Made by a program: the position numbers and the translations under genes. A DNA stretch of 64,000 nt from Eubacteriales bacterium. Lineage in GTDB: Bacteria > Bacillota > Clostridia > Oscillospirales > CAG-272. The notes below the pieces were generated by a model that saw only the letters and a list, made by a program, of their open reading frames with translations, made no database searches and was not told the origin of the DNA. This document shows, one piece after another, positions 22,249-38,559 of this stretch (positions are counted from its first letter, which is position 1; every line of letters begins with the position of its first letter). The stretch is from positions 28,345-92,344 of the forward strand of contig JAZLCA010000019.1 of NCBI GenBank assembly GCA_045613985.1. Direction: 5' to 3'.

Positions 22249-23622
22249 TTATTCGATCATCTTCGCAACATATTCAATTTGTGCTTGAATCGACGCAGGC
22301 GACGTGCCACCCTCGGAATTTCGTTTTGCCACGCAGGTTGCAAGATCAATCTCTTCAAAAATATCCTCTTCGATCAAATCACTGAATGTACGGTACTCTT
22401 GAAGAGTCAGTTCTTCCAACACCTTACCCTCGGAAATGCATTTAGCCACTACCCCACCTGCAATTTTATAGGCAGAACGGAAAGGCATTCCTTTCTTAAC
22501 CAGATAATCGGCCAAGTCAGTTGCGTTGATAAACCCTTTTTGCGCAGCCTGCTTCATGTTGTCCTTCAACACAGTCATAGTGGCAAGCATCGGGATCAGC
22601 ACCTGCAAACACTGTACAACAGTATCCGCTGCATCAAAGACGCTCTCCTTATCTTCCTGCATATCCTTATTGTACGCCAACGGCAGGCCCTTGAGCGTCG
22701 TGAGCAGAGCTATAAGATCGCCATAAACTCGGCCGGTCTTGCCACGGATCAACTCGGCCATATCCGAATTTTTCTTTTGTGGCATGATAGAGGATCCTGT
22801 AGTATAAGCGTCGGAAAGCTCAACGAATTTGAACTCCCAACTGGACCAAAGAATGATTTCCTCTGAAAGTCTGGACAAATGCATCATCAAAATGGAACAA
22901 AAAGCCATAAATTCCGCGCAAAAATCACGGTCCGACACACCGTCAAGGCTGTTACGGCTGATATCGTTAAAGCCAAGTTGCTTCGCCTCAAACCAACGGT
23001 CTGTATCATACGTTGTTCCCGCCAGAGCACAGCAACCGATCGGAGAGACGTTCATGCGCTTGATGCAATCACGCAAGCGATCAACATCGCGCAAAAGCAT
23101 CATGGCATAGGCCAACAGATGCTGAGCAAACGTGATGGGTTGAGCTCTTTGCAAATGCGTATAGCCGGGCATAATCGTGTTCTTATGCTCCCGCGCCTGC
23201 TCGACAATAACACCCAACAATTCATTCAATTGAACGAGAATCCCCTCCGACACCGAGCGCAAATACATCCGCAGATCCAACGCAACCTGGTCGTTACGGC
23301 TGCGGGCTGTGTGTAGCTTTTTACCTACGTCGCCCAATCGTTCCGTCAGCACTTGCTCAACGAACATATGGATATCTTCACAGCTCATGTCGATCTCAAG
23401 CTTATCTGCTTCGATATCCTCGAGAATTCCCTCAAGTCCCGAAATTAGCTGTTCCGCTTCGTTTTGCGTAATGATACCGCGTGCGCCCAGCATAGCGGCA
23501 TGGGCCATGGAGCCGGTAATATCTTCGCGGTACATACGGGAATCAAAATGAATGGAAGAATTGAAATCGTCCGCGATACGATCCGTCTCGCCCGACGTTC
23601 TTCCCGCCCACATTTTAGCCAT
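22249..23622 (-). CDS. argH: Argininosuccinate lyase
   Basis: [18 protein letters not shown] and [11 protein letters not shown] motifs. Confidence 0.97.
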
Positions 23623-23685
23623 AATTTACTCCTTCATTTAGAAAACACCGCCCGCTCAGGACGGTGTTTTCCGTAATACGTCATA

Positions 23686-24912
23686 TTATTTCTTTGCGTT
23701 CTTGGCGTCAACCATAGCCTGAACCTTGATGGGCAGACCATAGAGGTTAATGAAGCCTGCACTGTCCTTCTGATCGTAATCAGACTCACCGAAGGTTGCA
23801 ATCTCTTCGCTGTACAAAGAATAATCACTCCAAACGCCTGCATTGATCATATTGCCCTTATACAGCTTGAGGCGAACCTTACCGGTAACCTTTTCCTGCG
23901 TCTTATCAACGAAGGCGGCAAGAGCCTCACGCAAGGGGGTGAACCACTGGCCGTTGTAAACCAACTCAGCGTAAGTAATGGCCAGCTTCTGCTTTTCATG
24001 CAACGTCATCTTGTCAAGGCAGATGCTCTCCAGAACGCTGTGTGCCTTGTACAGAATGGTTCCGCCGGGCGTTTCGTAAACACCGCGGCACTTCATGCCT
24101 ACCAGTCTGTTCTCGACGATATCAAGAAGACCGATACCATTCTTTCCGCCCAGTTCATTGAGCTTCAAAATGATGTTCTTGGCACTCATCTTTTCGCCGT
24201 CAAGTGCTACGGGAACACCTTGTACAAAGTCGATCTCTACGTAGGTAGGAACATCGGGTGCCTGCAAGGGAGAGACGCCCATCTCAAGGAAGCCGGGCTT
24301 TTCATACATAGGCTCGTTGCCCGTATCCTCCAGATCCAGGCCTTCATGAGACAAATGCCACAGGTTCTTGTCCTTGGAATAGTTGGTCTCGCGGTTGATC
24401 TTCAAAGGAACGTTGTGAGCCTCTGCATAGTCGATCTCTTCTTCGCGAGACTTGATATCCCACTCTCTCCAAGGAGCGATGATGGGCATATCGGGGCAGA
24501 AATGCTTGAGAGTCAATTCGAAACGAACCTGGTCATTGCCCTTACCGGTACAACCGTGACAAATGGCATCAGCACCTTCCTTGATTGCGATCTCAGCCAA
24601 ACCCTTGGCGATGCAAGGACGTGCATGAGAAGTACCCAACAGGTATTCTTCATAAATGGCACCGGCTTTCATACAAGGAATAATGTATTCATCTACATAT
24701 TCCTCGGTCAAATCCAACACGTACAGTTTTGATGCGCCCGTCTTGAGTGCCTTTTCTTCCAGACCTTCAAGTTCATCCGCCTGGCCAACGTTACCCGACA
24801 CAGCAACAACTTCACAATTGTTATAATTTTCCTTGAGCCACGGAATGATAATGGACGTATCCAAGCCTCCCGAATATGCAAGTACAACCTTTTTGATGTT
24901 TTCCTTATTCAT
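23686..24912 (-). CDS. argG: Argininosuccinate synthase
   Basis: [24 protein letters not shown] and RGVYETPGG motifs. Confidence 0.97.
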
Positions 24913-25148: not shown

Positions 25149-25177
25149 TTGACATCGTTTGTTGTTTATGCTATAAT
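25149..25177 (+). promoter_or_regulatory. sigmaA promoter of the T-box operon
   Basis: Consensus TTGACA-17 bp-TATAAT with a TGn extension. Confidence 0.85.
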
Positions 25178-25194
25178 ATCGGCATATTTCAAAT

Positions 25195-25478
25195 ACTGTG
25201 AAGGAATTACGTATGGCACGTCAGATGTTGCAGAGAGTTGACGGTTGGTGTAAGTCAACACATCGGTACCTATATGGTCTCATTCCTGAGTAGAGCTTCC
25301 GAACTTTGCACCTTTCGCATCATTAAGAAGCTCCGGCAGCCCCGTTACCATGGCTGACGGCTTTATACGAGCCGAACAAAGTGATCGCCCTATAGGCGAT
25401 AATTTCGTGGGTGGTACCGCGGCATTTACGTGTCGTCCCTGAAGCAGATGCTGTATCTGCGTCGGGGCGTTTTTTTAT
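25195..25478 (+). ncRNA. T-box riboswitch leader with a probable Leu (CUC) specifier
   Basis: AGAGA (25232) and GGTG-TAA (25247) stem I motifs; AGGAA/TTCCT base of stem I with CTC-A at 25279-25282; T-box GGGTGGTACCGCG at 25409-25421; terminator with a U tract at about 25434-25478. Confidence 0.9.
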
Positions 25479-25505
25479 TACATCATTTCTCGGAGGTAAC
25501 TATTT

Positions 25506-26912
25506 ATGAAGCAAATTTTCATCAACGATGCTACCCTGTGCGGTAAGCGTATGGCAACCATGAGTTTCCGCGAAAAGTTGGAAATTGCTAAACTACTTGA
25601 TAAAATGAAGGTGGATTGTATCGATTTCGGCACAATCCAAAATGAAAAAACGGATCCCCTACTTGTCTCTACCATTGCCCCCCTTCTTGCGCACAGCAAG
25701 CTCTGCATTTCCGTTGGGTTAGAGGAACACGACGTTGTTGTGGCCGGAAAGGCCCTTTCCAATCTCGCAGCTGCAAGACTTGCCGTCACTCTCCCCGTTT
25801 CTACCGTTGGTATGGAATATACCTGCCACAAAAAGCCAACGGCCGTATTGGAAGCAGTGATCGCACAGATTGCGCGCTGCAAACAATATGCTTGCGAGGT
25901 TGAACTTTGCGCGCTGGATGCTACTCGCAGCGAACCCGAATTTTTACGGCAATTGATTGTTGCTGCCATCGAGGCGGGCATCACTCATCTCACACTTTGC
26001 GACAACGCGGGCCGCACGCTTCCCGAAGAAGCTGCCGCATTTGTCGCTGATACGCTCAAAAATTTACCCGCTCTTGACGGATTGACCGTGTGTGTTTCTT
26101 TTCCCAACCGTATGCAACTGTCCGTCGCTTGTGCCACCGCCGCTTTACAGGCAGGCGCTGACGGCGTAAAGACCGGTGTCGGCTGTGATGATTACACTGA
26201 TGTCGCTCCTTTGTCCGAGATTTTACGCGACCGTGGGGAGACTTTGGGATTCTATTGCTCACTGAACATGACTGAGCTGCACCGTTGCATCCGTCAAATC
26301 GAAACCCTCACCCGTCCGACAGGCGAAATGGCAGGAGCTGCCACCACCGGACTGGCGGCAGATAACGAAATCCTTTCGCTGGATAAAAACGATGATTGCG
26401 TTTCTGTTGCCCGTGCCGTCCGCAAGCTCGGCTACGATCTGAATCCCGAGGATGAAGCACACGTTTATGAGGCATTTGTGCGGGTTGCAGAAAAAAAGGC
26501 CGTCAATGCCAGAGAACTTGAGGCTATCATTGCAAGTACCGCTTTGCAGGTCCCGCCCACTTATCGTTTGGTCAGCTATTTGACCAACAGCGGTAACATT
26601 ATCAGCTCTTCTGCTCACATTCAATTAGAAAAGAACGGACAAATGCTGGAAGGAATCACCATCGGTGACGGCCCCATTGATGCTGCTTTTATGGCCATTG
26701 AGCAGATCATCGGACACCATTACGATTTGGATGATTTCCAGATTCAGTCCGTCACCCAGGGACATGAGGCTATGGGTAACGCTCTGGTTCGTTTGCGTAA
26801 CGGCGGAAAGATTTACTCCGGTAATGGCATTTCCACCGATATCATCGGTGCAAGTATCCGTGCATATTTGAACGCTTTAAATAAGATTGTCTACGAGGAG
26901 GCTGCAGAATGA
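25506..26912 (+). CDS. 2-isopropylmalate synthase (LeuA) homolog with a degenerate active site and an intact C-terminal regulatory domain
   Basis: DRE-TIM-like N-terminus, but TLRDGEQ reads TLCGKRM and HxHND reads SFPNR; regulatory-domain motifs GDGPIDA and STDIIGASIRAYLNALN are conserved. Confidence 0.85.
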   Translation: MKQIFINDATLCGKRMATMSFREKLEIAKLLDKMKVDCIDFGTIQNEKTDPLLVSTIAPLLAHSKLCISVGLEEHDVVVAGKALSNLAAARLAVTLPVSTVGMEYTCHKKPTAVLEAVIAQIARCKQYACEVELCALDATRSEPEFLRQLIVAAIEAGITHLTLCDNAGRTLPEEAAAFVADTLKNLPALDGLTVCVSFPNRMQLSVACATAALQAGADGVKTGVGCDDYTDVAPLSEILRDRGETLGFYCSLNMTELHRCIRQIETLTRPTGEMAGAATTGLAADNEILSLDKNDDCVSVARAVRKLGYDLNPEDEAHVYEAFVRVAEKKAVNARELEAIIASTALQVPPTYRLVSYLTNSGNIISSSAHIQLEKNGQMLEGITIGDGPIDAAFMAIEQIIGHHYDLDDFQIQSVTQGHEAMGNALVRLRNGGKIYSGNGISTDIIGASIRAYLNALNKIVYEEAAE

Positions 26913-29401
26913 AACTCTCCTTTTCCACCAAAGGCTGGCAACAGCTTGGCTGGCAACGTTTATATGAATTGGCGCGCGACGTCAAGCTCTCCGGCATGGA
27001 AATACATAATCCGCTCGATCCCGTGATGAGAGATCGGGTACTGGATACCCAAAACGTGCCCCTTTCCCGCCGTCAGTTGCAGGAGGCGGGATTACAGATC
27101 GCCTGCGTGGATCTGCCCGTTGATCTGACGGACGAGAGCGATGATTTCCTCGCCAAATTAGATCGTGCCATCACGGCAGCTGTGAATATGAGAACCTCTC
27201 ATATCCGTATTCACACCATGGCTTCAAGCGAAAACGGCAAGGTTCCCGAGACGACCATGTCTCTGTTGGCTCTCGCCCTGGATAAGGCTGAAAAAGCCAA
27301 TGTTACACTGTTACTCGAAACCGCAGGTATGTTTTCTGACACAAACCTGCTCAAAAACACGCTCGATATCTTTGCCAGCGATTATCTGGCGGCTCTTTGG
27401 GATATGCATAACACCTACTTTCTGTCGGGGGAGACGGCACAAATCTCCATTGAACATTTAGGAGCTTACGTCAAGCACGTGCATATCAAGGACGCACAGC
27501 CTATGGGCGACGGGCACCAGTATTGCCTGATTGGAAGCGGTACACTTCCCATTGAGGATATGATGCGCGCCTTGCGTTCAGTCAATTATGACGGCTTTGT
27601 TTCATTGGAATGGAATCCCGATTGGTTGCCCGATATCGATGATCCCGAGATCATTTTTTCTCATTTCGTTCACGTCATGAGCCGCTTCGATCCCACATCA
27701 CGCAAAAAAAGCACGCTCTTTTCCAACGCAACCGGCACAGGCGTATTCCCTTGGAAAAAGGACACTCTTCTTGACTGTACGTTCGCCGAGGTGCTGGATC
27801 GAGTGGCAGAAGAATTTCCTGACCAGTATGCTTTTCGCTATACAACGTTGGACTACACCCGCACCTATGCACAATTCCGTGACGATGTGGATGATTTTGC
27901 CCGCGTTTTGATATCCATGGGAGTACGCGCAGGACAGAAAGTAACCGTGTGGCTGACAAACCTGCCTCAATGGTATATTGCCTTTTGGGCAACGACTAAA
28001 ATCGGCGCAATACTAGTCACCATGAACACAGCATATAAGATTCACGAAGCAGAATACCTGCTTCGTCAATCGGATACGCACACCCTCATTATGATCGAGG
28101 ATTACCGCGACTCCAATTACAAGGCCATTATGCAGGAGCTTTGCCCGGAGCTCAAAACTACTCGTCCCGGCCAGCCCTTACATGCCAAAAAACTTCCCTT
28201 CCTTCGCAATATCATTACGGTTGGTTTCCGCATGGATGGTTGCTTGACGTGGGAAGAAAGTTTGACGCGAAAGAACCTGATTCCCGTAGAAGAGGTTCAC
28301 CGCATGGCCGCGGCTGTTAACAAAAATGATGTCTGCAATATGCAGTATACGTCCGGTACGACAGGCTTTCCCAAGGGCGTTATGTTGACACACTATAATG
28401 TTGTCAACAACGGAAAATATATCGGAGATCATATGGATCTTTCCACGGCTGACCGCATGATGATCCAAGTCCCCATGTTCCATTGCTTCGGCATGGTACT
28501 TTCCATGACCGCTTCCATGACGCACGGCGCTACTATGTGCCCGCTTCCCTACTTTTCACCCAAATCGGCACTTGCCTGCATCAACCAGGAAAAGATCACT
28601 GCATTCAACGGCGTTCCTACCATGTTCATCGCCATGATGCAACACGCCGATTTCGCCAAAACCGATTTTTCTCACATCCGCACGGGCATTATGGCGGGTG
28701 CCAACTGTCCCGCTGATCTGATGAAAAAGGCCGCAGACGTTATGAACATGAAGCAGATTGTCAGCGTTTACGGTCAGACTGAGGCAGCCCCCGGCTGTAC
28801 CATGAGTAGCTTCACCGATCCGCTCGACGTTCGTACCGAAACGGTCGGCTCTGCTTTCGCCAACGTCGAGTGTAAAATCATTGATCCCGAAACCGGCGAG
28901 GAATGCCCCATTGGTGTCAACGGTGAATTCGTTGCCCGCGGTTACAATATTATGAAAGGCTATTACAAAATGCCTGCTGCCACAGCGGCCGCTATTGATG
29001 CAGATGGCTGGTTGCACACGGGCGACCTTGCCGCGAAAGATGAAAACGGCAACTATCGCATCACGGGAAGACTCAAGGACATGATTATCCGCGGCGGTGA
29101 AAACCTTTATCCCAAGGAAATCGAAGAGTTTTTCTACACGCACCCCAAGGTACGCGACGTTCAGGTGATCGGCGTGCCGGATGAACGCTACGGTGAAGAA
29201 GCCATGGCTTGCATCATCCTCAAGGAAGGAACCGAGGCCACCATCGAGGAGTTCCGCGATTATGCCAACGCGCATATGGCCCGCCACAAAGTTCCCCGCT
29301 ACCTTGAGTTTGTCCGTGAATTCCCCATGAACGCCGCGGGGAAAATTCTCAAATATAAAATGCGCGAGCAAGCGATCGAGCGGCTCGGGCTCAAAAAGTA
29401 A
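26909..29401 (+). CDS. Fusion of a xylose-isomerase-like (AP endonuclease 2) TIM barrel and an AMP-forming acyl-CoA ligase
   Basis: About aa 1-260: LLLET, WDMHN, HVHIKD and VSLEW; remainder: YTSGTTGFPKG, YGQTE, WLHTGD, DMIIRGGEN and GKILK; ATGA overlap with the upstream gene. Confidence 0.9.
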   Translation: MKLSFSTKGWQQLGWQRLYELARDVKLSGMEIHNPLDPVMRDRVLDTQNVPLSRRQLQEAGLQIACVDLPVDLTDESDDFLAKLDRAITAAVNMRTSHIRIHTMASSENGKVPETTMSLLALALDKAEKANVTLLLETAGMFSDTNLLKNTLDIFASDYLAALWDMHNTYFLSGETAQISIEHLGAYVKHVHIKDAQPMGDGHQYCLIGSGTLPIEDMMRALRSVNYDGFVSLEWNPDWLPDIDDPEIIFSHFVHVMSRFDPTSRKKSTLFSNATGTGVFPWKKDTLLDCTFAEVLDRVAEEFPDQYAFRYTTLDYTRTYAQFRDDVDDFARVLISMGVRAGQKVTVWLTNLPQWYIAFWATTKIGAILVTMNTAYKIHEAEYLLRQSDTHTLIMIEDYRDSNYKAIMQELCPELKTTRPGQPLHAKKLPFLRNIITVGFRMDGCLTWEESLTRKNLIPVEEVHRMAAAVNKNDVCNMQYTSGTTGFPKGVMLTHYNVVNNGKYIGDHMDLSTADRMMIQVPMFHCFGMVLSMTASMTHGATMCPLPYFSPKSALACINQEKITAFNGVPTMFIAMMQHADFAKTDFSHIRTGIMAGANCPADLMKKAADVMNMKQIVSVYGQTEAAPGCTMSSFTDPLDVRTETVGSAFANVECKIIDPETGEECPIGVNGEFVARGYNIMKGYYKMPAATAAAIDADGWLHTGDLAAKDENGNYRITGRLKDMIIRGGENLYPKEIEEFFYTHPKVRDVQVIGVPDERYGEEAMACIILKEGTEATIEEFRDYANAHMARHKVPRYLEFVREFPMNAAGKILKYKMREQAIERLGLKK

Positions 29402-29427
29402 TCCGATAAGACAAGGAGAAAACAACG

Positions 29428-30498
29428 ATGGAAATCAGAATTGAAAGAACAAGCACACCTGCAAATAAGCCGGACAGTTCCAAATTGGGCTTTGGCCGCT
29501 ATTTTACAGATCATATGTTTATCATGGATTATTCGCCCGACCAGGGGTGGCACGACGCTCGCATCGTTCCGTTTGGCAACCTTTCTCTTCATCCTGCCGC
29601 TACCGTTTTTCATTACGGCGCCGAAGTATTTGAGGGTATGAAGGCTTACCGTCGTGCGGACGGCGTTGTGCAGTTGTTCCGCCCGATGGAAAACGTCAAG
29701 CGCCTCAACTCCTCCGCAGAACGTCTGTGTCTGCCCGAAATTGACGAGCAGGATGCGCTGGATGCGATCATGAAGTTCGTTGAAGTCGAGCAGGATTGGG
29801 TCCCCTCCAATCCCGGTACCTCGCTGTATTTGCGTCCTTTCCTGTTTGGTTCGGACGAGCAGCTTGGTCTCCACACCATTCAAAATGCCATGTTTATCAT
29901 TATTGCCTCCCCTGTCGGCAGCTACTACGCTGCAGGCATCAACCCCGTTCGCATTATGATCGAAACCGAAGACGTTCGTGCCGTCAAGGGCGGTACGGGA
30001 TATACCAAGTGTGGCGGTAACTATGCAGCCAGCAACCGTGCGGCAGCTCGCGCAGAACAAAAAGGATATTCTCAGGTATTGTGGCTGGACGGTATCCACC
30101 GCAAGTATATCGAGGAAGTCGGTGCGATGAACGTTATGTTCCGCATCGGTGATGAGATCGTCACTCCTGAATTGTCCGGATCTATTTTGCCCGGTATTAC
30201 CCGTAAATCCTGTCTGGACGTCCTGCGCGCCGAAGGTTATAAGGTCAGCGAACGTAAAATCAGCGTAGATGAGCTTGTTGACGCTATGAAAAACGGAACG
30301 CTTAAAGAAGCTTGGGGTTGTGGTACCGCCGCTGTCGTATCTCCCATTGGAGAATTGGCCTTTGGCGATATGAAGTATACGGTAAACAACTTTGAGATTG
30401 GCGAGATCACACACCATCTGTACGACACACTGACCGGTATTCAGTGGGGTAAGGTATCCGACACCTACGGCTGGACAGTCGAAATTCCCGCAAACTAA
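29428..30498 (+). CDS. ilvE: Branched-chain amino acid aminotransferase
   Basis: FGRYFTDHM, HYG..VFEGMKAY, LYLRPF, KCGGNYA, EEVGAMN and ILPGITR motifs. Confidence 0.96.
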   Translation: MEIRIERTSTPANKPDSSKLGFGRYFTDHMFIMDYSPDQGWHDARIVPFGNLSLHPAATVFHYGAEVFEGMKAYRRADGVVQLFRPMENVKRLNSSAERLCLPEIDEQDALDAIMKFVEVEQDWVPSNPGTSLYLRPFLFGSDEQLGLHTIQNAMFIIIASPVGSYYAAGINPVRIMIETEDVRAVKGGTGYTKCGGNYAASNRAAARAEQKGYSQVLWLDGIHRKYIEEVGAMNVMFRIGDEIVTPELSGSILPGITRKSCLDVLRAEGYKVSERKISVDELVDAMKNGTLKEAWGCGTAAVVSPIGELAFGDMKYTVNNFEIGEITHHLYDTLTGIQWGKVSDTYGWTVEIPAN

Positions 30499-30507
30499 GG
30501 AGCTATC

Positions 30508-33500
30508 ATGTCTGAACACAAGCATTTTCCTATGGCGACCATGGATGGTAACGAAGCCGCCGCCTACGTTGCCTATGCTTTTACCGAGATCGCAGCCATC
30601 TATCCCATCACTCCCTCATCCCCCATGGCGGGCAAGACGGATGCATGGAGTGCGCACGGTAAGAAAAACTTATTTGGTCAGCCCGTAAGCCTGATTGAAA
30701 TGCAATCCGAGGCGGGCGCAGTAGCAGCCGTTCACGGCGCACTGGAAACGGGCGCTTTAGCAACCACCTTTACATCCTCACAGGGTCTGATGCTCATGAT
30801 TCCCGTCATGCACCGTATTTCGGGTGAGCGTCTTCCCGGTGTGCTTCACGTAGCGTCCCGTACTGTTGGAACCCACGCTCTGTCCATCTTCGGAGATCAC
30901 AGCGACGTAATGAATTGCCGCCAGACCGGTTTTGCCCTGCTCTCCACCGCGAGCGTTCAGGAGATCATGGATCTGGCTCCCGTGGCACATCTTTCGGCGA
31001 TCAAGGGGAGAATTCCCTTCCTTCATTTCTTCGACGGCTTGCGCACCTCGCACGAAATCAACAAGATCGAAACCATTCCTCACGAAGAAATGGGAAAGCT
31101 GTTGGATCGTGACGCGCTGGATGCCTTCCGCGCTCAAGCGCTCAATCCCGAGCATCCAAAACTGCGGGCAACCGTTCAAAACGGCGACGTTTATTTCCAG
31201 GTGCGCGAGGCTAACAACGGCTTCTACGATGCCCTGCCGGATATCGTCGAAAATTATATGAACGAAATTGCCACGCTGACCGGACGGAAATATCACCTTT
31301 TTGATTACTACGGTGATCCCGATGCGACCGATGTAGTTGTAGCTATGGGATCGGTCAGCGGTACCGTCCGTGAGGCCGTAGATGCGCTTCGCGCGAAGGG
31401 ACGCAAGGTTGGTTTTTTGCAGGTCCATCTGTTCCGTCCTTTCTCCATCAAGCATTTCGTATCCGCACTTCCGGCAAGCGTTCGCCGCATCGCGGTGTTG
31501 GATCGTTGCAAAGAGATGGGGGCTTTGGGCGAGCCCTTATATCAAGATGTTTGCACCGTCTTCTCGGGACGCTCAGACGTTACCGTCGTCGGCGGTCGTT
31601 ACGGCCTTTCCTCCAAGGATACCGATCCTTCCCAGATCGTTGCCGTATTCGATAACCTCGCCGCTGAGCATCCCAAAAATTCCTTTAGCATCGGCATCGT
31701 TGATGACGTGACCTTCCGTTCTCTGCCCATCGGTGCTCCCGTTGCGGAAAAGGCCGATACCTTCTCTTGCAAATTCTGGGGTCTGGGATCCGACGGTACG
31801 GTCGGTGCCAACAAAAACACGGTCGAGATCATCAACGATCATACCGATCGCTACGCACAGGCCTATTTTGAATACGATGCTAAAAAATCCTTTGGCGTCA
31901 CAAAATCTCACCTCCGCATCAGTCCAACTCCGATCACCTCTTCTTACTACGTCAAAAGTGCCGATCTGGTTGCTTGCCATCATCAAAGCTATGTTGGCAA
32001 ATACGACATGGTCAGCGAGCTCAAGCAAGGCGGTATCTTCCTTCTCAACTGCACTTGGGCTGCAAACGAGCTGGAGGAAAATTTGCCTGCCGACGTCCGT
32101 CGTACACTGGCGCAAAAAAATGCTCGCCTCTATCTAATCAATGCCAGCGAGATCGCTTCTCGCTTAGGACTTGGCTCGCACACCAACACCGTGCTTCAAG
32201 CCGCTTTCTTCCATATCGCCTCCATTCTGGATGAGCAAACCGTTATTGGATACATGAAGGACGCCGCTCGAAAGACCTATTTCGCCAAGGGTGATGCCGT
32301 TGTCGAGCGCAATTTGTCCGCCATTGATGCAGGTGTTGAGGGTGTATATCGTGTGGATATTCCCGCTCATTGGGCAAATGCGGCGGATACTCCCATCGCA
32401 ACAGACGAAATCAAGCCCGCCGTTGTACGTAATATTCTCGAGCCAATCAACGCGCAAAAGGGCGACGATCTGCCCGTCAGTGCCTTCCGCGGCTATGAGG
32501 ATGGTACCATTGACGTAGGTCTTACCGCTTATGAAAAGCGCAACATTGCAGCCAAGGTTCCCGTGTGGAACAGCACGGTCTGCTTACAGTGCAACCGATG
32601 CTCACTGGTCTGCCCCCACGCCGCCATCCGTCCGTATCTTCTGACGGAAGAAGAATTGTCCAACGCTCCCGAAGGACTGGTCGCTGTTGCTGCCAAGGGC
32701 GCTGCAGCCAAGGGCTACTATTACACGCTTCAAATCAGTACCGCAGATTGTACCGGATGTGGTAGCTGTGTGGCCTCTTGTCCGGCCAAGGACAAGGCGA
32801 TTGAGATGGTGGGTAACACCTTCCCCATTGCTTCTCCCGCTTGGGCATACACGTTAAGACTGGATGACAAGAACAACCTGTTCGACCGCTATACCGTCAA
32901 GGGTAGTCAGTTCTGCCGTCCGTTGCTTGAATTCTCTGCCGCCTGCGCAGGCTGCGGTGAAACCCCATACGCCAAGTTGCTCACTCAGTTGTTTGGTGAC
33001 CGCGTCTATTGGGCCAACGCCACCGGATGCTCCCAGGCTTGGGGTTCTCCCATGCCGGGTATTCCCTACACAACCAACAAGCAAGGCCACGGCCCTGCCT
33101 GGTCCAACTCGCTGTTTGAAAACAACGCTGAGTTCAGTTTGGGAATGTTTTTGTCCGTCCGTCAACAAAGAGAGGCACAGAAAATGCGTGTGGAACAGCT
33201 GATGGCTATAGCCGACGGAGCGGTGCGCGAAAATACGAAGGCTTGGCTGGATGGCTTTGATAATTACGAGGCCTCTCCCGCTCTGACCGAAGACTTGTGT
33301 AACGTTCTGCAAGAGGCTCGTCCCACGATGACTGCTGAACAGGCCACACTTGCCGCTGACATTCTCCGTTACCGCGACCAGCTGACCAAAAAGTGCTTTT
33401 GGATGTTCGGCGGCGACGGCTGGGCGTACGATATCGGCTTTGGCGGTTTGGATCACGTGGTGGCAAGCGGCGAGGACGTCAATATGTTCATCGTCGATAC

Positions 33501-34017
33501 CGAAGTGTATTCCAACACGGGCGGTCAGTCTTCCAAGGCAACCCCGATCGGTGCAGTCGCTCAGTTTGCCAACTCGGGTAAAAAGACACTCAAGAAGGAT
33601 CTTGGCGCTATGCTCATGACCTACGGCAACGTATACGTTGCGCAGGTCGCTATGGGTGCCGATCCCAACCAGCTGATGAAGGCACTCAAAGAAGCCGCCT
33701 CCTATCCCGGTCCTTCTGTCATCATCGCCTATACGCCCTGTACCGCTCACGGCATCAAGGGCGGTATGAGTGGTGTTCAGGCCGAGATGAAGCGCGCCGT
33801 GGATGCCGGCTACTGGCACTTGTACCGCTACGATCCCAGAAAAGATCAGCCCTTCGTCCTGGATAGCGGCGAAGCTACCCTGTCCTACCGTGACTTTCTG
33901 GACGGCGAAGTTCGTTACAGCGCACTCATCCGCACCTTCCCCAACGAGGCCGCCACGCTGTTTGAGCAAGGCGCCGAAGCGGCGAAGAAGAAGTATGAAA
34001 ATTATAAGAAAATGTAA
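30508..34017 (+). CDS. Single-chain pyruvate/2-oxoacid:ferredoxin oxidoreductase (NifJ/PFOR family)
   Basis: YPITPSS, MQSEAGA, GSDGTVGANK, two CxxCxxCxxxCP motifs, ACAGCGE, GGDGWAYDIG and YSNTGGQ. Confidence 0.93.
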   Translation: MSEHKHFPMATMDGNEAAAYVAYAFTEIAAIYPITPSSPMAGKTDAWSAHGKKNLFGQPVSLIEMQSEAGAVAAVHGALETGALATTFTSSQGLMLMIPVMHRISGERLPGVLHVASRTVGTHALSIFGDHSDVMNCRQTGFALLSTASVQEIMDLAPVAHLSAIKGRIPFLHFFDGLRTSHEINKIETIPHEEMGKLLDRDALDAFRAQALNPEHPKLRATVQNGDVYFQVREANNGFYDALPDIVENYMNEIATLTGRKYHLFDYYGDPDATDVVVAMGSVSGTVREAVDALRAKGRKVGFLQVHLFRPFSIKHFVSALPASVRRIAVLDRCKEMGALGEPLYQDVCTVFSGRSDVTVVGGRYGLSSKDTDPSQIVAVFDNLAAEHPKNSFSIGIVDDVTFRSLPIGAPVAEKADTFSCKFWGLGSDGTVGANKNTVEIINDHTDRYAQAYFEYDAKKSFGVTKSHLRISPTPITSSYYVKSADLVACHHQSYVGKYDMVSELKQGGIFLLNCTWAANELEENLPADVRRTLAQKNARLYLINASEIASRLGLGSHTNTVLQAAFFHIASILDEQTVIGYMKDAARKTYFAKGDAVVERNLSAIDAGVEGVYRVDIPAHWANAADTPIATDEIKPAVVRNILEPINAQKGDDLPVSAFRGYEDGTIDVGLTAYEKRNIAAKVPVWNSTVCLQCNRCSLVCPHAAIRPYLLTEEELSNAPEGLVAVAAKGAAAKGYYYTLQISTADCTGCGSCVASCPAKDKAIEMVGNTFPIASPAWAYTLRLDDKNNLFDRYTVKGSQFCRPLLEFSAACAGCGETPYAKLLTQLFGDRVYWANATGCSQAWGSPMPGIPYTTNKQGHGPAWSNSLFENNAEFSLGMFLSVRQQREAQKMRVEQLMAIADGAVRENTKAWLDGFDNYEASPALTEDLCNVLQEARPTMTAEQATLAADILRYRDQLTKKCFWMFGGDGWAYDIGFGGLDHVVASGEDVNMFIVDTEVYSNTGGQSSKATPIGAVAQFANSGKKTLKKDLGAMLMTYGNVYVAQVAMGADPNQLMKALKEAASYPGPSVIIAYTPCTAHGIKGGMSGVQAEMKRAVDAGYWHLYRYDPRKDQPFVLDSGEATLSYRDFLDGEVRYSALIRTFPNEAATLFEQGAEAAKKKYENYKKM

Positions 34018-34042
34018 CGAAACCGATTTTTAACATAAAGTT

Positions 34043-34080
34043 AGCCTCCGCCAAGGTTTTCCCTTGACGGAGGCTGTTTT
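34043..34080. terminator. Intrinsic terminator ending the T-box operon
   Basis: agcctccg-ccaagg...ccttg-acggaggct hairpin followed by gtttt. Confidence 0.8.
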
Positions 34081-34090
34081 ACTTTCAAAC

Positions 34091-34936
34091 TTACCCTTCT
34101 GTCTTCGCCAACCAATCGGCAACGACGAAGTCCTGTAGCTTGCGCAACGTGACGGGATCTTGGCCGCCGACCGAAGCGCCATCAAGTTCACACACCGACA
34201 GACACAGCGAGCCCGCGCTGGAGACGATGATCTCGTCCGCGTCGCGCAGCTCCTGCATAGTGAAAATACGCTCCTCGACCGGAATACCGAGCGTCTTACT
34301 CGCCGCGATCAGGTGAGCGCGACCGATGCCGGGAAGAATATATTCGTCCGCCGGTGGCGTAATGAAAACGCCATTTTTGAGAATGGACACGTTGGAATGC
34401 GAGCATTCGGTCACGCGGTCGCCGCGGTGCATGACCGTCTCGTCCACGCCTGCTTTGTTGGCCATCTCGGCCGTCAGTACACTGGGCAAAAGATTGAGCG
34501 TTTTAATGTTGCAATACAGATATCTTCTGTCCTCGGCACTGATCAGGCGAATGGGGCGATAGACCGGCTTGATCTTCACGGGGCGTAGCATGATCATGAG
34601 ATTGGATTTAGGCTGTCCTGCAGGAAAGACGTGATCTCTCAAGGCACTGCCTCGCGTTACTTGCCAATAAACGAACTGCTCACCATCGTCTACGCGGCGT
34701 ACGAGATCGATCAAAAGTGCACGTAATTCTTCGGCAGGCATCGGCTCCGCAATCTCCAGGCGCTTCAGATTGACGTAAAAGCGCGCGATATGCTCATCAA
34801 GCGCATAGATAACGTGATTTCTCGAGTAAGCGGCATCATAAATGCCATCTCCAAAATAAAGACCGCGGTCCGTCATAGGAACCTTCATCTCCTCAATAGA
34901 CCCGATCTCTCCGTTGTAGTATCCTAAATTAAGCAT
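34091..34936 (-). CDS. Class IV aminotransferase, D-amino acid aminotransferase-like
   Basis: DRGLYFGDGIY, YWQVTRG, RDHVFP, IKTLNLL and ILPGI motifs. Confidence 0.85.
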   Translation of the reverse strand: MLNLGYYNGEIGSIEEMKVPMTDRGLYFGDGIYDAAYSRNHVIYALDEHIARFYVNLKRLEIAEPMPAEELRALLIDLVRRVDDGEQFVYWQVTRGSALRDHVFPAGQPKSNLMIMLRPVKIKPVYRPIRLISAEDRRYLYCNIKTLNLLPSVLTAEMANKAGVDETVMHRGDRVTECSHSNVSILKNGVFITPPADEYILPGIGRAHLIAASKTLGIPVEERIFTMQELRDADEIIVSSAGSLCLSVCELDGASVGGQDPVTLRKLQDFVVADWLAKTEG

Positions 34937-35199: not shown

Positions 35200-38100
35200 A
35201 TGATACATCCCGCCAAAACGTCACGTTTCAGACGCTTCTGCCGATATCTTGCTTTCATATTGGCACTTCTTATGGTTCCAACGGCACTTATCTCCTGCCA
35301 GACGCCCTCGGATACGCCACCACCGGACGATATTCCCCCTACCGATGACGGCACGAACGACACGCCCTCGGACAAGCTGCCAGAAGAAGAGGATCCCGGA
35401 ACGAAGCCGCCGGAAGATGATCCTCCCAAGGAAGATGATCCTCCCAAGGAAGACGAGCCATATGTTCCGAACGAAGCGCCCCTGATACGCGAGGAAGGTG
35501 GACTATATCTCTATTCTTCCGGAACATATCTGTGCAATTCCGCCAATCAGGACAAGGAATTTCTTTTCCGTCAGTTCGGAAACGCGTTGGACTATTGCCG
35601 CTTTGCCGACGGATATTCTACCATTGTATATCGCTTCAATATTCACGATAAATATGAGCCTTTGCTCGAGTTCACTATTGGTAACGATTACAAGATCGAA
35701 ATTTCAACCGACGGAAAAAGCTGGACCAAAGTATATAACTGGCTGGACGAGCATCCTACCTGCCGCGACCGCAGTAACCAAGCAGTATTTACCATCAATC
35801 CCTACGATTTTGAGGTGTACGATATGTGCTACATCCGTTTCTCCGACCCTTCCACGTCGGACGGATGCGGACCTTGTCTAACACAACTTACATTTTCTTA
35901 CTACGAGGACAGTAAAATGGAAGACTTGAACATTTTTGATTTGAATGAAAACATGTACGACATCTTGGATGATCTCAATTACACTACCGAAGATCCCTCG
36001 ACTGTTGACACCTATGCCATCGCCTCCGACGGCGGTCTCATTTACAATCCCATTTCGCGTGAAAAAGCAGAAGAGCTGACCAAATACGATGCAGCCGAAT
36101 GCTACACCGGAAGCATCAAAAAGACGGTCAGCGGCATCGAATATACCCTCACCTATAAAATCCCCAAGCAGGCGACCGCTTACGATGCATTGCCGATTTG
36201 GTATGAAATCACCTCCTCCAAAAATTCTTCTGCCATCGTCTACGTTAATGCAACTGCATTTGAGGACAAAGAGCGCGAGGGCGGAAACCTTTACTATGAC
36301 CTGACGCTTCCTGGCACGGTCGATATTACTTGGGATTATCTGGGATACGTCGGCGGTATGGATAGGCTGAGTAACCGCGCACAGGTCACCGGTGATTTTG
36401 AAAAGGATAAGCTTGGCAAACAATATCCCCAGTACAATGCTACTGACGTTATCTTATCCGGCAATGTCAAATCATCTTCTATCTTATGGTGGAAGTTCCG
36501 TTATACCAATACGGGTAATACGGTGCTGGACGGCGACGGCAACGGCACCTTCTGCTTCGAAGGCTTTTTGTATCGTAAAAACGGCGACAACTGGGAAAAG
36601 TACGCCAAGATGGAAAACAACTACAACCGTATCATCGATGAGGTCTATCCCGGTGAAAGCGGCGAGATGTACTTCATTTTTGACGGCACCTACAATCTCC
36701 AACCCGGCGAATACAAGATTGTCATCAACAGTCTGGTACGCAACGAGACCTCCAATCCCGAAAATTACTTCACCAAGATTTGGGGCGGTGCTACCGCTTC
36801 GCAATCCGAGTTTACCTTTACCGTCAGCAACAGCGACGATATTACCTCTCCTGCCGCTGTCAAAAAATCTGCTCCTGCGTCTACGGTCCGCAACCGATGG
36901 TTGCACACCTATGAAGAGTTCATGACCAGCTTCGACAGCTATCTGAGAGGTATCACCGGCAAAAAGGTGACGGGCACCATGTATCTGCAGTGTGCTCCCT
37001 GGACCAATCAGGTCGTTCTTCGCCTGATCGTAGGTGACGGTGACACGATGGAGGCTGTTTCCATTCCCATCCAGATTGAGACCGACTCGATCAAAATCCA
37101 ATTCAACCCCGACAACAACAATTACGTTGTGCTGGAAGACGGCACACGCTTCCCCGCCATTACGGCGCAGTCCATGGCGGATATGCGCGGTAACGTCCAA
37201 CTCGGCCCGGATGCTGCCTTTAACGTCATCGATAATCTCCTGGCCATGCAGGAGATTGGCATCAACGTCATCAACACCACGGCCGCATTCGAATTTGATG
37301 CCTCTTTTGGCAAGAACCGTGCCAACAACATCGACGCCTGCTGGTTCTCTTTGGACGTCGCCCGCATTTTGGGTATCAAGCTGCAGGGCTGGATCTGCTA
37401 TCCCTATGAGTCGACAAACTCGCTGAATCAGGCCAACAAGCTGTTCGGCACCAAGTTTGCCGAAACGGGCTTTGGATCCAAGGATCTGGCAGAAGCCAAC
37501 GGCATGAATGCCGTTTGGCAGTATGAGCGCTGGGGCGACAACTACTGGATCGGCGGCGATGACACGGTGCTGCTTGATATTGAGGATACCCGCGGTTGGA
37601 TGCGCGTTGATTTCAACGCCCGTTATCGCATCGATGCATCTTCCAAGCAGTATTTCAGATTCTTCCTGATGGATCTGTATGGCAGTGACATTGATGAGCT
37701 TAACGATGATTGGGGTACGGAATACGAATCCTTTGAAGAGATTGATCCCGAGATTGGAACAGCAGACGACCACGGCTGGGCAAGCTACAAGGTTGACGGT
37801 ATCGTTTTTGAAGAATGGAGTCGTCCCCTTGAGGTACTGGATATGTTCCGTACGCTGGAGCGTATTCAGGACTATCAGAGAATACTGGAAGTAGCCAAGG
37901 AAACCATTCCCACCGGCAAGATCAGCCTGAGAACGGAAGGTGCCAACTGGCTGGCCACCGTTGATCCCTCTACTACCAATCCCCACCTGCGCCACGTATA
38001 TTACAGCCAGCGTCGCTGTGGTATTATTCCCGAATTGATGGCAGAGTCGGAGATTCTGTACGCCGCTTCGGACTACACCACACTTCCCTACACTCCCAGC

Positions 38101-38559
38101 GAGGTCGCCGAATTGACTGCTTCCAGCATTGAAAACGGTATCGTTCCCATGCTGCTGCCTCAGTTCAACCGTATGCGTGACATCGCCATAAATGAAAGAT
38201 ACGGTACCGACTTCACCTATGATTATAACCTCGATCCCGAAAAAGCAACCAAGGGTGCTTACATCAGCACCGTATGCTCCGTCTTTGAATGGTTCCGCGC
38301 CACCTACGAAAACGGCGGCGTTCCCGGCATTCTCTGGCAGGATTACCTGTGCGATGGTTACGCGACCGCCACTCAGCGCAAGGAAATTGCTTTCTTCACC
38401 GAGAAGCTGATTGAGGCGCTGAACACTCCCGAAGGTCAAGAATGGGCCAAGAACTTTACCCAGGACACCTCCGTTCTGGACGGTTCCTCCGCTTGCTGGA
38501 CCTTTGATCAGGAGATGGTCAAGGATTTGATCGAGCAGGCTAAGGAAAAGAGAAACTAA
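35200..38559 (+). CDS. Large lipoprotein with a Pro/Asp linker, beta-sandwich modules and a GH42-like glycoside hydrolase domain
   Basis: Lipobox LISC (Cys33); P/D/E-rich linker; 'LYGSDIDELNDDWGTEYESFEEIDP' resembles the GH42-type Y.....LN..WGT...SF..I.P motif. Confidence 0.65.
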   Translation: MIHPAKTSRFRRFCRYLAFILALLMVPTALISCQTPSDTPPPDDIPPTDDGTNDTPSDKLPEEEDPGTKPPEDDPPKEDDPPKEDEPYVPNEAPLIREEGGLYLYSSGTYLCNSANQDKEFLFRQFGNALDYCRFADGYSTIVYRFNIHDKYEPLLEFTIGNDYKIEISTDGKSWTKVYNWLDEHPTCRDRSNQAVFTINPYDFEVYDMCYIRFSDPSTSDGCGPCLTQLTFSYYEDSKMEDLNIFDLNENMYDILDDLNYTTEDPSTVDTYAIASDGGLIYNPISREKAEELTKYDAAECYTGSIKKTVSGIEYTLTYKIPKQATAYDALPIWYEITSSKNSSAIVYVNATAFEDKEREGGNLYYDLTLPGTVDITWDYLGYVGGMDRLSNRAQVTGDFEKDKLGKQYPQYNATDVILSGNVKSSSILWWKFRYTNTGNTVLDGDGNGTFCFEGFLYRKNGDNWEKYAKMENNYNRIIDEVYPGESGEMYFIFDGTYNLQPGEYKIVINSLVRNETSNPENYFTKIWGGATASQSEFTFTVSNSDDITSPAAVKKSAPASTVRNRWLHTYEEFMTSFDSYLRGITGKKVTGTMYLQCAPWTNQVVLRLIVGDGDTMEAVSIPIQIETDSIKIQFNPDNNNYVVLEDGTRFPAITAQSMADMRGNVQLGPDAAFNVIDNLLAMQEIGINVINTTAAFEFDASFGKNRANNIDACWFSLDVARILGIKLQGWICYPYESTNSLNQANKLFGTKFAETGFGSKDLAEANGMNAVWQYERWGDNYWIGGDDTVLLDIEDTRGWMRVDFNARYRIDASSKQYFRFFLMDLYGSDIDELNDDWGTEYESFEEIDPEIGTADDHGWASYKVDGIVFEEWSRPLEVLDMFRTLERIQDYQRILEVAKETIPTGKISLRTEGANWLATVDPSTTNPHLRHVYYSQRRCGIIPELMAESEILYAASDYTTLPYTPSEVAELTASSIENGIVPMLLPQFNRMRDIAINERYGTDFTYDYNLDPEKATKGAYISTVCSVFEWFRATYENGGVPGILWQDYLCDGYATATQRKEIAFFTEKLIEALNTPEGQEWAKNFTQDTSVLDGSSACWTFDQEMVKDLIEQAKEKRN

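Follow-up and report, generated by a model that had tools for sequence, protein, structure and literature searches.

A leucine T-box operon as a candidate genetic basis for making leucine from a branched-chain acid in Clostridia

Why should an acyl-CoA ligase and a 2-oxoacid:ferredoxin oxidoreductase be placed under the control of a leucine tRNA? The question is raised by an operon in a 64,000-nt stretch of DNA from a Eubacteriales bacterium of the gut or rumen (assembly GCA_045613985.1, contig JAZLCA010000019.1, positions 28,345 to 92,344 of the forward strand), to which we refer as the window. Here, a T-box leader with a leucine specifier precedes genes for a LeuA-like pseudoenzyme, a fusion of a TIM barrel with an AMP-forming acyl-CoA ligase, the branched-chain amino acid aminotransferase IlvE, and a paralogue of the NifJ-type pyruvate:ferredoxin oxidoreductase (PFOR), such that enzymes for acid activation, 2-oxoacid synthesis and transamination co-occur under leucine-specific control. 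Judging from sequence and comparative genomics, the operon probably serves to make leucine from a branched C5 acid under leucine starvation, in place of the missing LeuABCD pathway. Chemistry of this kind has a long history, as Allison and co-workers, cited in PMC7709123, reportedly found that rumen and gut anaerobes reductively carboxylate isovalerate, 2-methylbutyrate and isobutyrate to leucine, isoleucine and valine; their studies are said to have relied on physiology and isotope tracing and to have named no genes. The operon is a candidate for the genetic basis of this pathway known from labelling studies.

In the proposed mechanism, uncharged tRNA-Leu(GAG) would stabilise the antiterminator of the T-box, and the four genes would be transcribed as a single mRNA. 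The ligase part of the fusion would use ATP to activate isovalerate to isovaleryl-CoA, which the specialised PFOR would reductively carboxylate with CO2 and reduced ferredoxin to 2-ketoisocaproate, and IlvE would transaminate the latter to leucine. Valine and isoleucine would still come via IlvC and IlvD. Both the substrates and the direction of the oxidoreductase are those that we infer.

A leucine-controlled operon and the missing leucine genes

The operon starts from a sigma-70-type promoter on the forward strand (25149-25177; TTGACA-17-TATAAT with a TG extension, 12/12 consensus matches), followed by the T-box leader with specifier, T-box sequence and terminator (25189-25476, +). The four genes behind it are co-directional and encode the 468-residue LeuA-like pseudoenzyme (25506-26912, +), the fusion, a proposed isovalerate-CoA ligase (26909-29401, +), IlvE (29428-30498, +), and the NifJ-type oxidoreductase, a proposed 2-ketoisocaproate synthase (30508-34017, +). 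Their junctions measure -4 nt, an ATGA overlap between pseudoenzyme and fusion, 26 nt and 9 nt, leaving no space for internal promoters, and terminator-like sites within the region show no excess over expectation (10 observed, 11.9 expected from shuffles); all four genes are predicted to lie on one mRNA. A bidirectional intrinsic terminator, a 14-bp hairpin with nine GC pairs (34043-34075), closes the operon and is common to it and a convergent gene for a class IV aminotransferase. Promoter, leucine T-box, four tightly packed genes and single terminator had all been described in the initial annotation of this DNA, and each of these elements was recovered in its place.

The identity of the leader rests on the Rfam covariance model RF00230, which matches positions 25189-25443 with 99.1 bits (gathering score 93, E 1.3e-20), and on our reading of the sequence. 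The specifier CUC occupies positions 25279-25281 and is followed by an A and the closing helix UUCC; the T-box sequence GGGUGGUACCGCG lies at 25409-25421, and the leader terminator hairpin spans about 25434-25476, with a U-run of seven T up to 25476. Uncharged cognate tRNA is the signal by which T-boxes induce their genes, and a tRNA-Leu(GAG) matching CUC is encoded in the genome. Among 48 orthologous leaders, the window included (41 in our alignment A2 and seven read by eye), the specifier is CUC in 34 and CUG in 14, the column switching solely between these synonymous leucine codons. Other riboswitches or small RNAs found near the cluster in relatives are THF, cobalamin, ZMP/ZTP and Gut-1 RNA (L064 4166-4266; L046 10656-10842; L101 3877-3988; L050 11296-11376).

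Is leucine obtained by the classical pathway elsewhere in this organism? The initial annotation had pointed out that no leuB, leuC or leuD lies in the window, which holds, and for leuB and leuC, along with leuA, the absence extends further, none of the three being found above cut-off anywhere in the 2.17-Mb, 99.48%-complete assembly. The only matches in these searches, far under the cut-offs, belong to a cluster of citrate-synthase-like, aconitase and IDH-like genes on contig 54. As ilvC is present above its cut-off, and ilvD is represented with 602 bits by a copy cut by a contig end, the genome should be able to make 2-ketoisovalerate, with no known means of extending it to 2-ketoisocaproate. 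The aminotransferase of the operon clearly qualifies as IlvE (477.7 bits against a cut-off of 307 for NF009897, and 402.7 against 250 for TIGR01123) and is the only copy found in the genome, with a single tblastn match.

A tendency in the same direction is seen across the host's order. In 301 genomes drawn from it, an orthologue of the ligase (E <= 1e-150) was detected in 173, with 115 fused, 54 unfused and four ambiguous cases, and leuB above its cut-off in 166. Of the ligase-bearing genomes, 62 have leuB and 111 lack it, compared with 104 and 24 of the 128 genomes without the ligase; for the fused form only, the numbers are 33 and 82 out of 115. An anti-correlation between ligase and leuB, for which the initial annotation had suggested to look, is thus borne out with an odds ratio of 0.13, a value that overstates the support, as related genomes are not independent, while its direction is clear. 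At the level of the class and at the stricter threshold of E <= 1e-240, 154 of the 399 genomes scored have the fused form, which is thereby represented in 81 of 217 genera.

Around the operon, argH and argG (22249-24912, -) are transcribed divergently and have a perfect promoter of their own, again with 12/12 matches (24993-24965). The convergent class IV aminotransferase (34091-34936, -) resembles D-amino-acid transaminases at scores below the cut-offs (209.6 against 277). Beyond it lies a gene for a 1119-residue protein (35200-38559, +) whose sole domain match is a sub-threshold one to the bacterial Ig-like domain Big_14 (24.2 bits, gathering score 27).

An oxidoreductase clade with its own pocket residues

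What distinguishes the oxidoreductase of the operon from an ordinary PFOR? By its overall sequence it is a full member of the family, matching TIGR02176 with 1698.1 bits (cut-off 911.35) over profile positions 1-1165 of 1167. The genome also contains the second canonical PFOR whose existence had been raised as a check in the initial annotation: a NifJ-type enzyme, 52% identical to that of the operon and split across the ends of contigs 64 and 20. Nine operon-linked PFORs share 60-74% mutual identity, compared with 46-56% to four housekeeping paralogues; the two groups form separate clades with a support of 1.0 and are fixed differently at 17 positions.

Two of these positions fall into the active site. 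In the PFOR of Desulfovibrio africanus (DaPFOR), the wall of the pocket for the pyruvate methyl group is formed by Leu121, Ala219, Ile843, Asn996 and Met1202, and positions equivalent to Ile843 and Asn996 control specificity in an archaeal enzyme, according to PMC5020499. Gapless alignments to DaPFOR equate Val223 of the window protein with Ala219, and Ala844 with Ile843. Both exchanges, Ile843 to Ala and Ala219 to Val, are found in nine of nine operon-linked PFORs, while all four housekeeping paralogues have Ile and Ala, as do both solved pyruvate enzymes (D. africanus, 1b0p; M. thermoacetica, 6cin). The comparison covered Leu121, Ala219, Ile843 and Asn996, Met1202 being located in a C-terminal extension. 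The equivalents of Leu121 and Asn996 are unchanged in the operon PFOR, as are those of Thr31 and Arg114, which bind the carboxylate. Thus, the enzyme retains the carboxylate-binding residues and departs at two wall residues from the narrow pyruvate-methyl pocket of the DaPFOR type. That two of five pocket residues should appear by chance among 17 of about 1170 positions is unlikely. Should the proposed function hold true, this would be a natural case of a PFOR adapted to a branched substrate through a handful of exchanges in its pocket.

A reaction on branched 2-oxoacids is not without precedent in the PFOR superfamily. Two reports describe it for C. sporogenes and A. muciniphila, with genetics in the oxidative direction (bioRxiv 10.1101/401489, PMC12867394), and by this precedent the operon could be a catabolic cluster, converting leucine via 2-ketoisocaproate and isovaleryl-CoA to isovalerate in the manner of porA/nifJ in other gut bacteria. 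However, T-box induction by uncharged tRNA is ill-suited to degrading the cognate amino acid, an AMP-forming ligase conserves no energy in reverse, and the ligase is anti-correlated with leuB, all of which renders a catabolic role extremely improbable.

A side aspect concerns the number of PFORs per genome. Among the five genomes checked that have an operon-linked PFOR, a second one is present in three and absent from two. In G302 (L076) and G303 (L078), the single NifJ-type PFOR is adjacent to the ligase, for which either a dual substrate or incomplete assemblies could account.

Synteny in relatives and the sister isoleucine and valine modules

How widely is this arrangement conserved? In a scan with a single genome for each species, relatives of the fusion were confirmed in at least 593 genomes, from which 80 loci were kept, mostly of rumen and gut metagenome-assembled genomes. 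Where named at all, these relatives are called 'AMP-binding protein' or 'AMP-dependent synthetase'. Cultured carriers include Neobittarella massiliensis and Anaerobacterium chartisolvens DSM 27016. Immediately before the ligase, the gene for the LeuA-like pseudoenzyme occurs in 73 of the 75 loci with at least 1500 nt of upstream sequence; the two exceptions are L038, where the gene can be seen on inspection, and L101, from A. chartisolvens, where it cannot. A T-box precedes the pseudoenzyme gene in 47 of the 80 loci (44 by motif and three via Rfam). A survey of synteny had been proposed from the outset, and the combination of pseudoenzyme, ligase and leucine T-box clearly recurs across relatives.

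The remaining genes are more variable. IlvE is encoded near the ligase in 26 of the 80 loci, and an oxidoreductase in 39, being of the three-subunit VorB type in 30, of the NifJ type in nine and of both types in none. The alpha subunit of the three-subunit VOR passes the VorB cut-off (546 against 399). As two unrelated oxidoreductase architectures appear in the same neighbourhood and never together, we read VOR and NifJ-type PFOR as replacing each other functionally beside the pair of pseudoenzyme and ligase. This recurrence also bears on a further alternative, namely that the grouping has no pathway meaning and ilvE alone needs leucine control, its transcript merely including the genes for a housekeeping PFOR and an unrelated ligase. 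While the operon-linked PFOR is indeed the sole NifJ-type enzyme in two of the five genomes mentioned above, a fortuitous grouping would have to have arisen with both architectures; moreover, the operon-linked PFORs are set apart as a clade by residues of the pocket, and the ligase keeps its leucine T-box where ilvE and PFOR are not adjacent. We therefore find this alternative hardly credible.

In 25 of 72 loci, the gene next downstream of the ligase is an Amidohydro_2 gene, and in 31 loci a conserved 227-residue protein, F3, precedes the VOR alpha subunit (e.g. L088 2011-2694), with a weak, sub-threshold match of the CbiA/MinD type (Pfam, 20.6 against 25.4). For neither the Amidohydro_2 protein nor F3 did we find an NCBIfam family. 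The host itself has an Amidohydro_2 homologue on contig 44 (L103 1642-4319), behind ilvA (PALP and ACT domains) and ridA, which constitutes a second tie of this family to branched-chain amino acid genes. On contig 33 of the host (L102 1736-4668), there is a second gene for an AMP-forming ligase, with no T-box reported, and behind it one for an oxidoreductase alpha-like protein, truncated at the end of the contig.

In relatives, the cluster is frequently accompanied by second ligases with T-boxes of their own. Of 27 such leaders, 19 have the isoleucine specifier AUC and eight the valine specifiers GUC or GUA, one of the eight with a 2-nt insertion that makes its register uncertain; five of these T-boxes were confirmed by Rfam. 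The isoleucine and valine ligases come without TIM domain and LeuA-like pseudoenzyme and have MbcS as their best NCBIfam match, at a score under the cut-off for the partial sequence scored. Purified MbcS activates 2-methylbutyrate and isobutyrate, and isovalerate only poorly (PMC10026030), which fits the existence of a separate ligase family for leucine. The presumed substrate of the latter, isovalerate, follows from its leucine T-box and from the analogy with the isoleucine and valine ligases. Four genomes with leucine, isoleucine and valine ligases have neither ilvD nor leuB, and a fifth, with leucine and isoleucine ligases, has ilvD and lacks leuB, the completeness of all five being unstated.

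The kinship with MbcS brings up the possibility that, when leucine is scarce, the ligase of the window provides isovaleryl-CoA to prime the synthesis of branched-chain fatty acids for the membrane, without leucine synthesis being its purpose. The related MbcS reportedly does this in Staphylococcus aureus (PMC10026030, PMC11167679), and a leucine T-box would make sense as a sensor where a leucine-derived primer runs short. However, IlvE and the oxidoreductase in the same transcript would then run from leucine to the acyl-CoA exactly when leucine is lacking, and both the anti-correlation with leuB and the loss of ilvD with the gain of isoleucine and valine ligases are predicted by amino acid supply, not by lipid synthesis. 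A role as lipid primer supplier thus appears very unlikely.

Control of the sister modules may take other forms. In the T-box-less loci L074, L075, L080, L083, L086, L087 and L092, a protein with HTH and cupin domains precedes the MbcS-like ligase or is fused to it, which suggests a protein-based control replacing the riboswitch.

The LeuA-like pseudoenzyme, the TIM domain and related systems

What remains to be explained are the two components with no obvious place in the pathway. The pseudoenzyme combines a degenerate HMGL-like barrel (87.7 bits) with an intact LeuA_dimer domain (PF08502; 106.6 bits, profile positions 2-130 of 131), and scores under every LeuA equivalog cut-off (258.9 against 532 for NF002086; 222.3 against 598.7 for TIGR00973). 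In alignment to the Neisseria 2-isopropylmalate synthase (IPMS) structure 3rmj, RDGEQ is altered to LC-GKRM and HCHND to SFPNR, with the HxH motif gone; these are residues that we take to be catalytic in LeuA. The metal-binding and catalytic motifs are missing from the barrel throughout the family, and conservation among its 65 members is concentrated in the C-terminal LeuA_dimer domain. The designation 'dead LeuA' of the initial annotation is therefore apt, and a de novo route from 2-ketoisovalerate through this protein was rejected, the catalytic motifs being gone.

In the fusion, the TIM barrel comprises residues of about 1-280 and the ligase residues of about 285-830. Pfam assigns AP_endonuc_2 (PF01261) to the barrel, which is thus xylose-isomerase-like, with 81.3 bits (gathering score 31.1), and AMP-binding and AMP-binding_C to the ligase with 310.2 and 63 bits; the best NCBIfam match, NF009233, falls short of its cut-off (673.9 against 832). 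A sequence search of solved structures yielded no close characterised relative of the ligase domain and only weak matches for the TIM domain (best E 2.3e-05). As to the fold of the TIM domain, a homologue falls only into generic 'sugar phosphate isomerase/epimerase' clusters with scores of 0.87-0.88, to be taken as leads only. The TIM domain of the window contains a Glu-Asp-His-Glu tetrad, placed via a partial alignment to 3p6l and, in part, by what we presume to be typical of the family. The tetrad is substituted in nine of 23 orthologues (Lys or Arg for Glu, Asn for Asp, Val for Glu). As loci with such substitutions keep both T-box and pseudoenzyme, canonical TIM catalysis seems dispensable in several lineages, at least by these alignments.

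The unfused form of the ligase also has leucine T-boxes, with CUC or CUU specifiers, and the pseudoenzyme was not found nearby, which marks the ligase as the leucine-linked core; by their distribution, pseudoenzyme and TIM domain travel together as an add-on to it. A pair formed by a 52%-identical ligase and a stand-alone TIM protein was considered as a 'split' version of the fusion and dropped, since no gene for the pseudoenzyme lies nearby in the four genomes inspected. The stand-alone TIM gene is on a different contig from the ligase in G022, G164 and G211, on the same contig in G025 and adjacent to it in G010; these TIM matches are probably unrelated to the fusion.

How well, then, does the route from isovalerate to leucine account for the evidence as a whole? 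Anticipated in the initial annotation, it is supported by the comparative evidence, and it leaves the pseudoenzyme and the TIM domain unaccounted for. Several observations count against it. Its three enzymes need neither of these components nor the Amidohydro_2 protein, so that the true substrate could differ from free isovalerate. With 62 of the 173 ligase-bearing genomes also having leuB, the ligase is not simply a replacement, and 24 genomes have neither. No oxidoreductase is visible in 41 of the 80 loci, many of them short, and the loci outside the 47 show no T-box upstream of the pseudoenzyme gene at the Rfam gathering score. In the pocket, the exchange of Ala219 to Val enlarges the residue rather than shrinking it, and where the operon-linked PFOR is the sole copy, it may also serve pyruvate. 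Finally, the only IlvE of the host sits behind a leucine-specific switch, yet valine and isoleucine need it too; the convergent class IV aminotransferase might cover their transamination.

The first of these points leads to the most serious alternative, in which the operon yields leucine through a different chemistry, either salvage or de novo. The TIM barrel, in relatives together with Amidohydro_2, would convert another precursor to the acid used by the ligase, and free isovalerate would not be the physiological substrate. TIM domain and pseudoenzyme are specific to the leucine ligase, the isoleucine and valine ligases lacking them; the tetrad is intact in the window; Amidohydro_2 follows the ligase in a third or so of the loci considered, with the host homologue standing behind ilvA and ridA; and the genome makes 2-ketoisovalerate. 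Yet the tetrad is substituted in orthologues that keep the remaining system, orthologous ligases without TIM domain or nearby pseudoenzyme still have leucine T-boxes, the parallel isoleucine and valine modules are plain ligases, and no chemically plausible route from 2-ketoisovalerate was found using these families. On balance, we regard another precursor as unlikely, and a route from the branched C5 acid itself remains the preferred reading.

Within that reading, a regulatory role could be envisaged for the additional components. Pseudoenzyme and TIM domain may together act as a leucine-responsive switch that turns the ligase off, which is a guess on our part. The pseudoenzyme would bind the fusion protein and inhibit the activation of isovalerate in the presence of leucine, and control would act twice, with the T-box acting on transcription and the pseudoenzyme on activity. 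Tentatively, this can be extended to an evolutionary scenario in which Clostridia that lost the isopropylmalate pathway kept the leucine-binding regulatory half of its first enzyme and reused it with a partly degenerate TIM barrel, fused to the ligase, as an allosteric brake, in a system that forms the long-sought genetic basis of the need for branched acids in rumen and gut anaerobes. If true, this could be a case of a pseudoenzyme kept for its sensor domain.

The wider significance lies in nutrition. Many fibre-degrading rumen and gut bacteria require isovalerate, 2-methylbutyrate or isobutyrate, and cattle are fed 'isoacids' for this reason. If the proposed function is correct, the trait of making leucine from isovalerate would become predictable from genomes, and a verdict of leucine auxotrophy from pathway-gap tools would misjudge what these organisms actually need.

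As for precedents, PMC2812497 presents a reductive carboxylation route for isoleucine in a methanogen, and PMC7709123, from 2020, calls the reverse, carboxylating reaction 'not proven yet'; in terms of genes, the chemistry counts as probable or unproven in both. In open-access papers and bioRxiv, a scope that is no proof of its being unpublished, we found no description of the cluster or of its regulation by a T-box, nor of the fusion or the LeuA-like pseudoenzyme, and none that assigns genes to the conversion of these acids to leucine, isoleucine and valine. As far as this search shows, the gene set, its regulation and breadth, the retuned PFOR clade and the add-on of pseudoenzyme and TIM domain are new, while the chemistry itself is old.

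How does the operon compare with known systems? Its pseudoenzyme resembles the 2-isopropylmalate synthase LeuA in the HMGL-like barrel and the strongly conserved, leucine-binding LeuA_dimer domain; it differs in having lost the metal-binding and catalytic motifs, in missing the equivalog cut-offs, and in always adjoining an acyl-CoA ligase, with the leuBCD context of LeuA not seen. Like MbcS, the methylbutyryl-CoA synthetase of S. aureus, the ligase is AMP-forming and would be a short branched-chain acyl-CoA synthetase, but while MbcS feeds fatty-acid primers (PMC10026030), the ligase of the window falls into a different subfamily of AMP-binding proteins, with a TIM barrel fused to it and a leucine T-box for its control. 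The oxidoreductase has the full-length single-chain architecture of the NifJ-type PFORs of known structure (1b0p, 6cin). From the PorA/NifJ enzymes acting on branched 2-oxoacids, for which the genetics is oxidative, it is set apart by its proposed biosynthetic role under amino-acid control.

With the T-box regulons for amino acid supply in Firmicutes (RF00230), the operon has in common the canonical architecture of the leader, in which specifier, T-box sequence and terminator are all present. The usual targets of these regulons are synthetases, transporters and classical biosynthetic genes, whereas here they are a fatty-acid ligase and a ferredoxin oxidoreductase. The closest parallel is the classical carboxylation of branched acids, with which the operon shares both the rumen and gut habitat and the proposed chemistry, from acid to acyl-CoA, 2-oxoacid and amino acid. 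What it would add to this scheme is a defined, T-box-controlled gene set, together with a LeuA-like pseudoenzyme and a TIM domain that the scheme did not predict.

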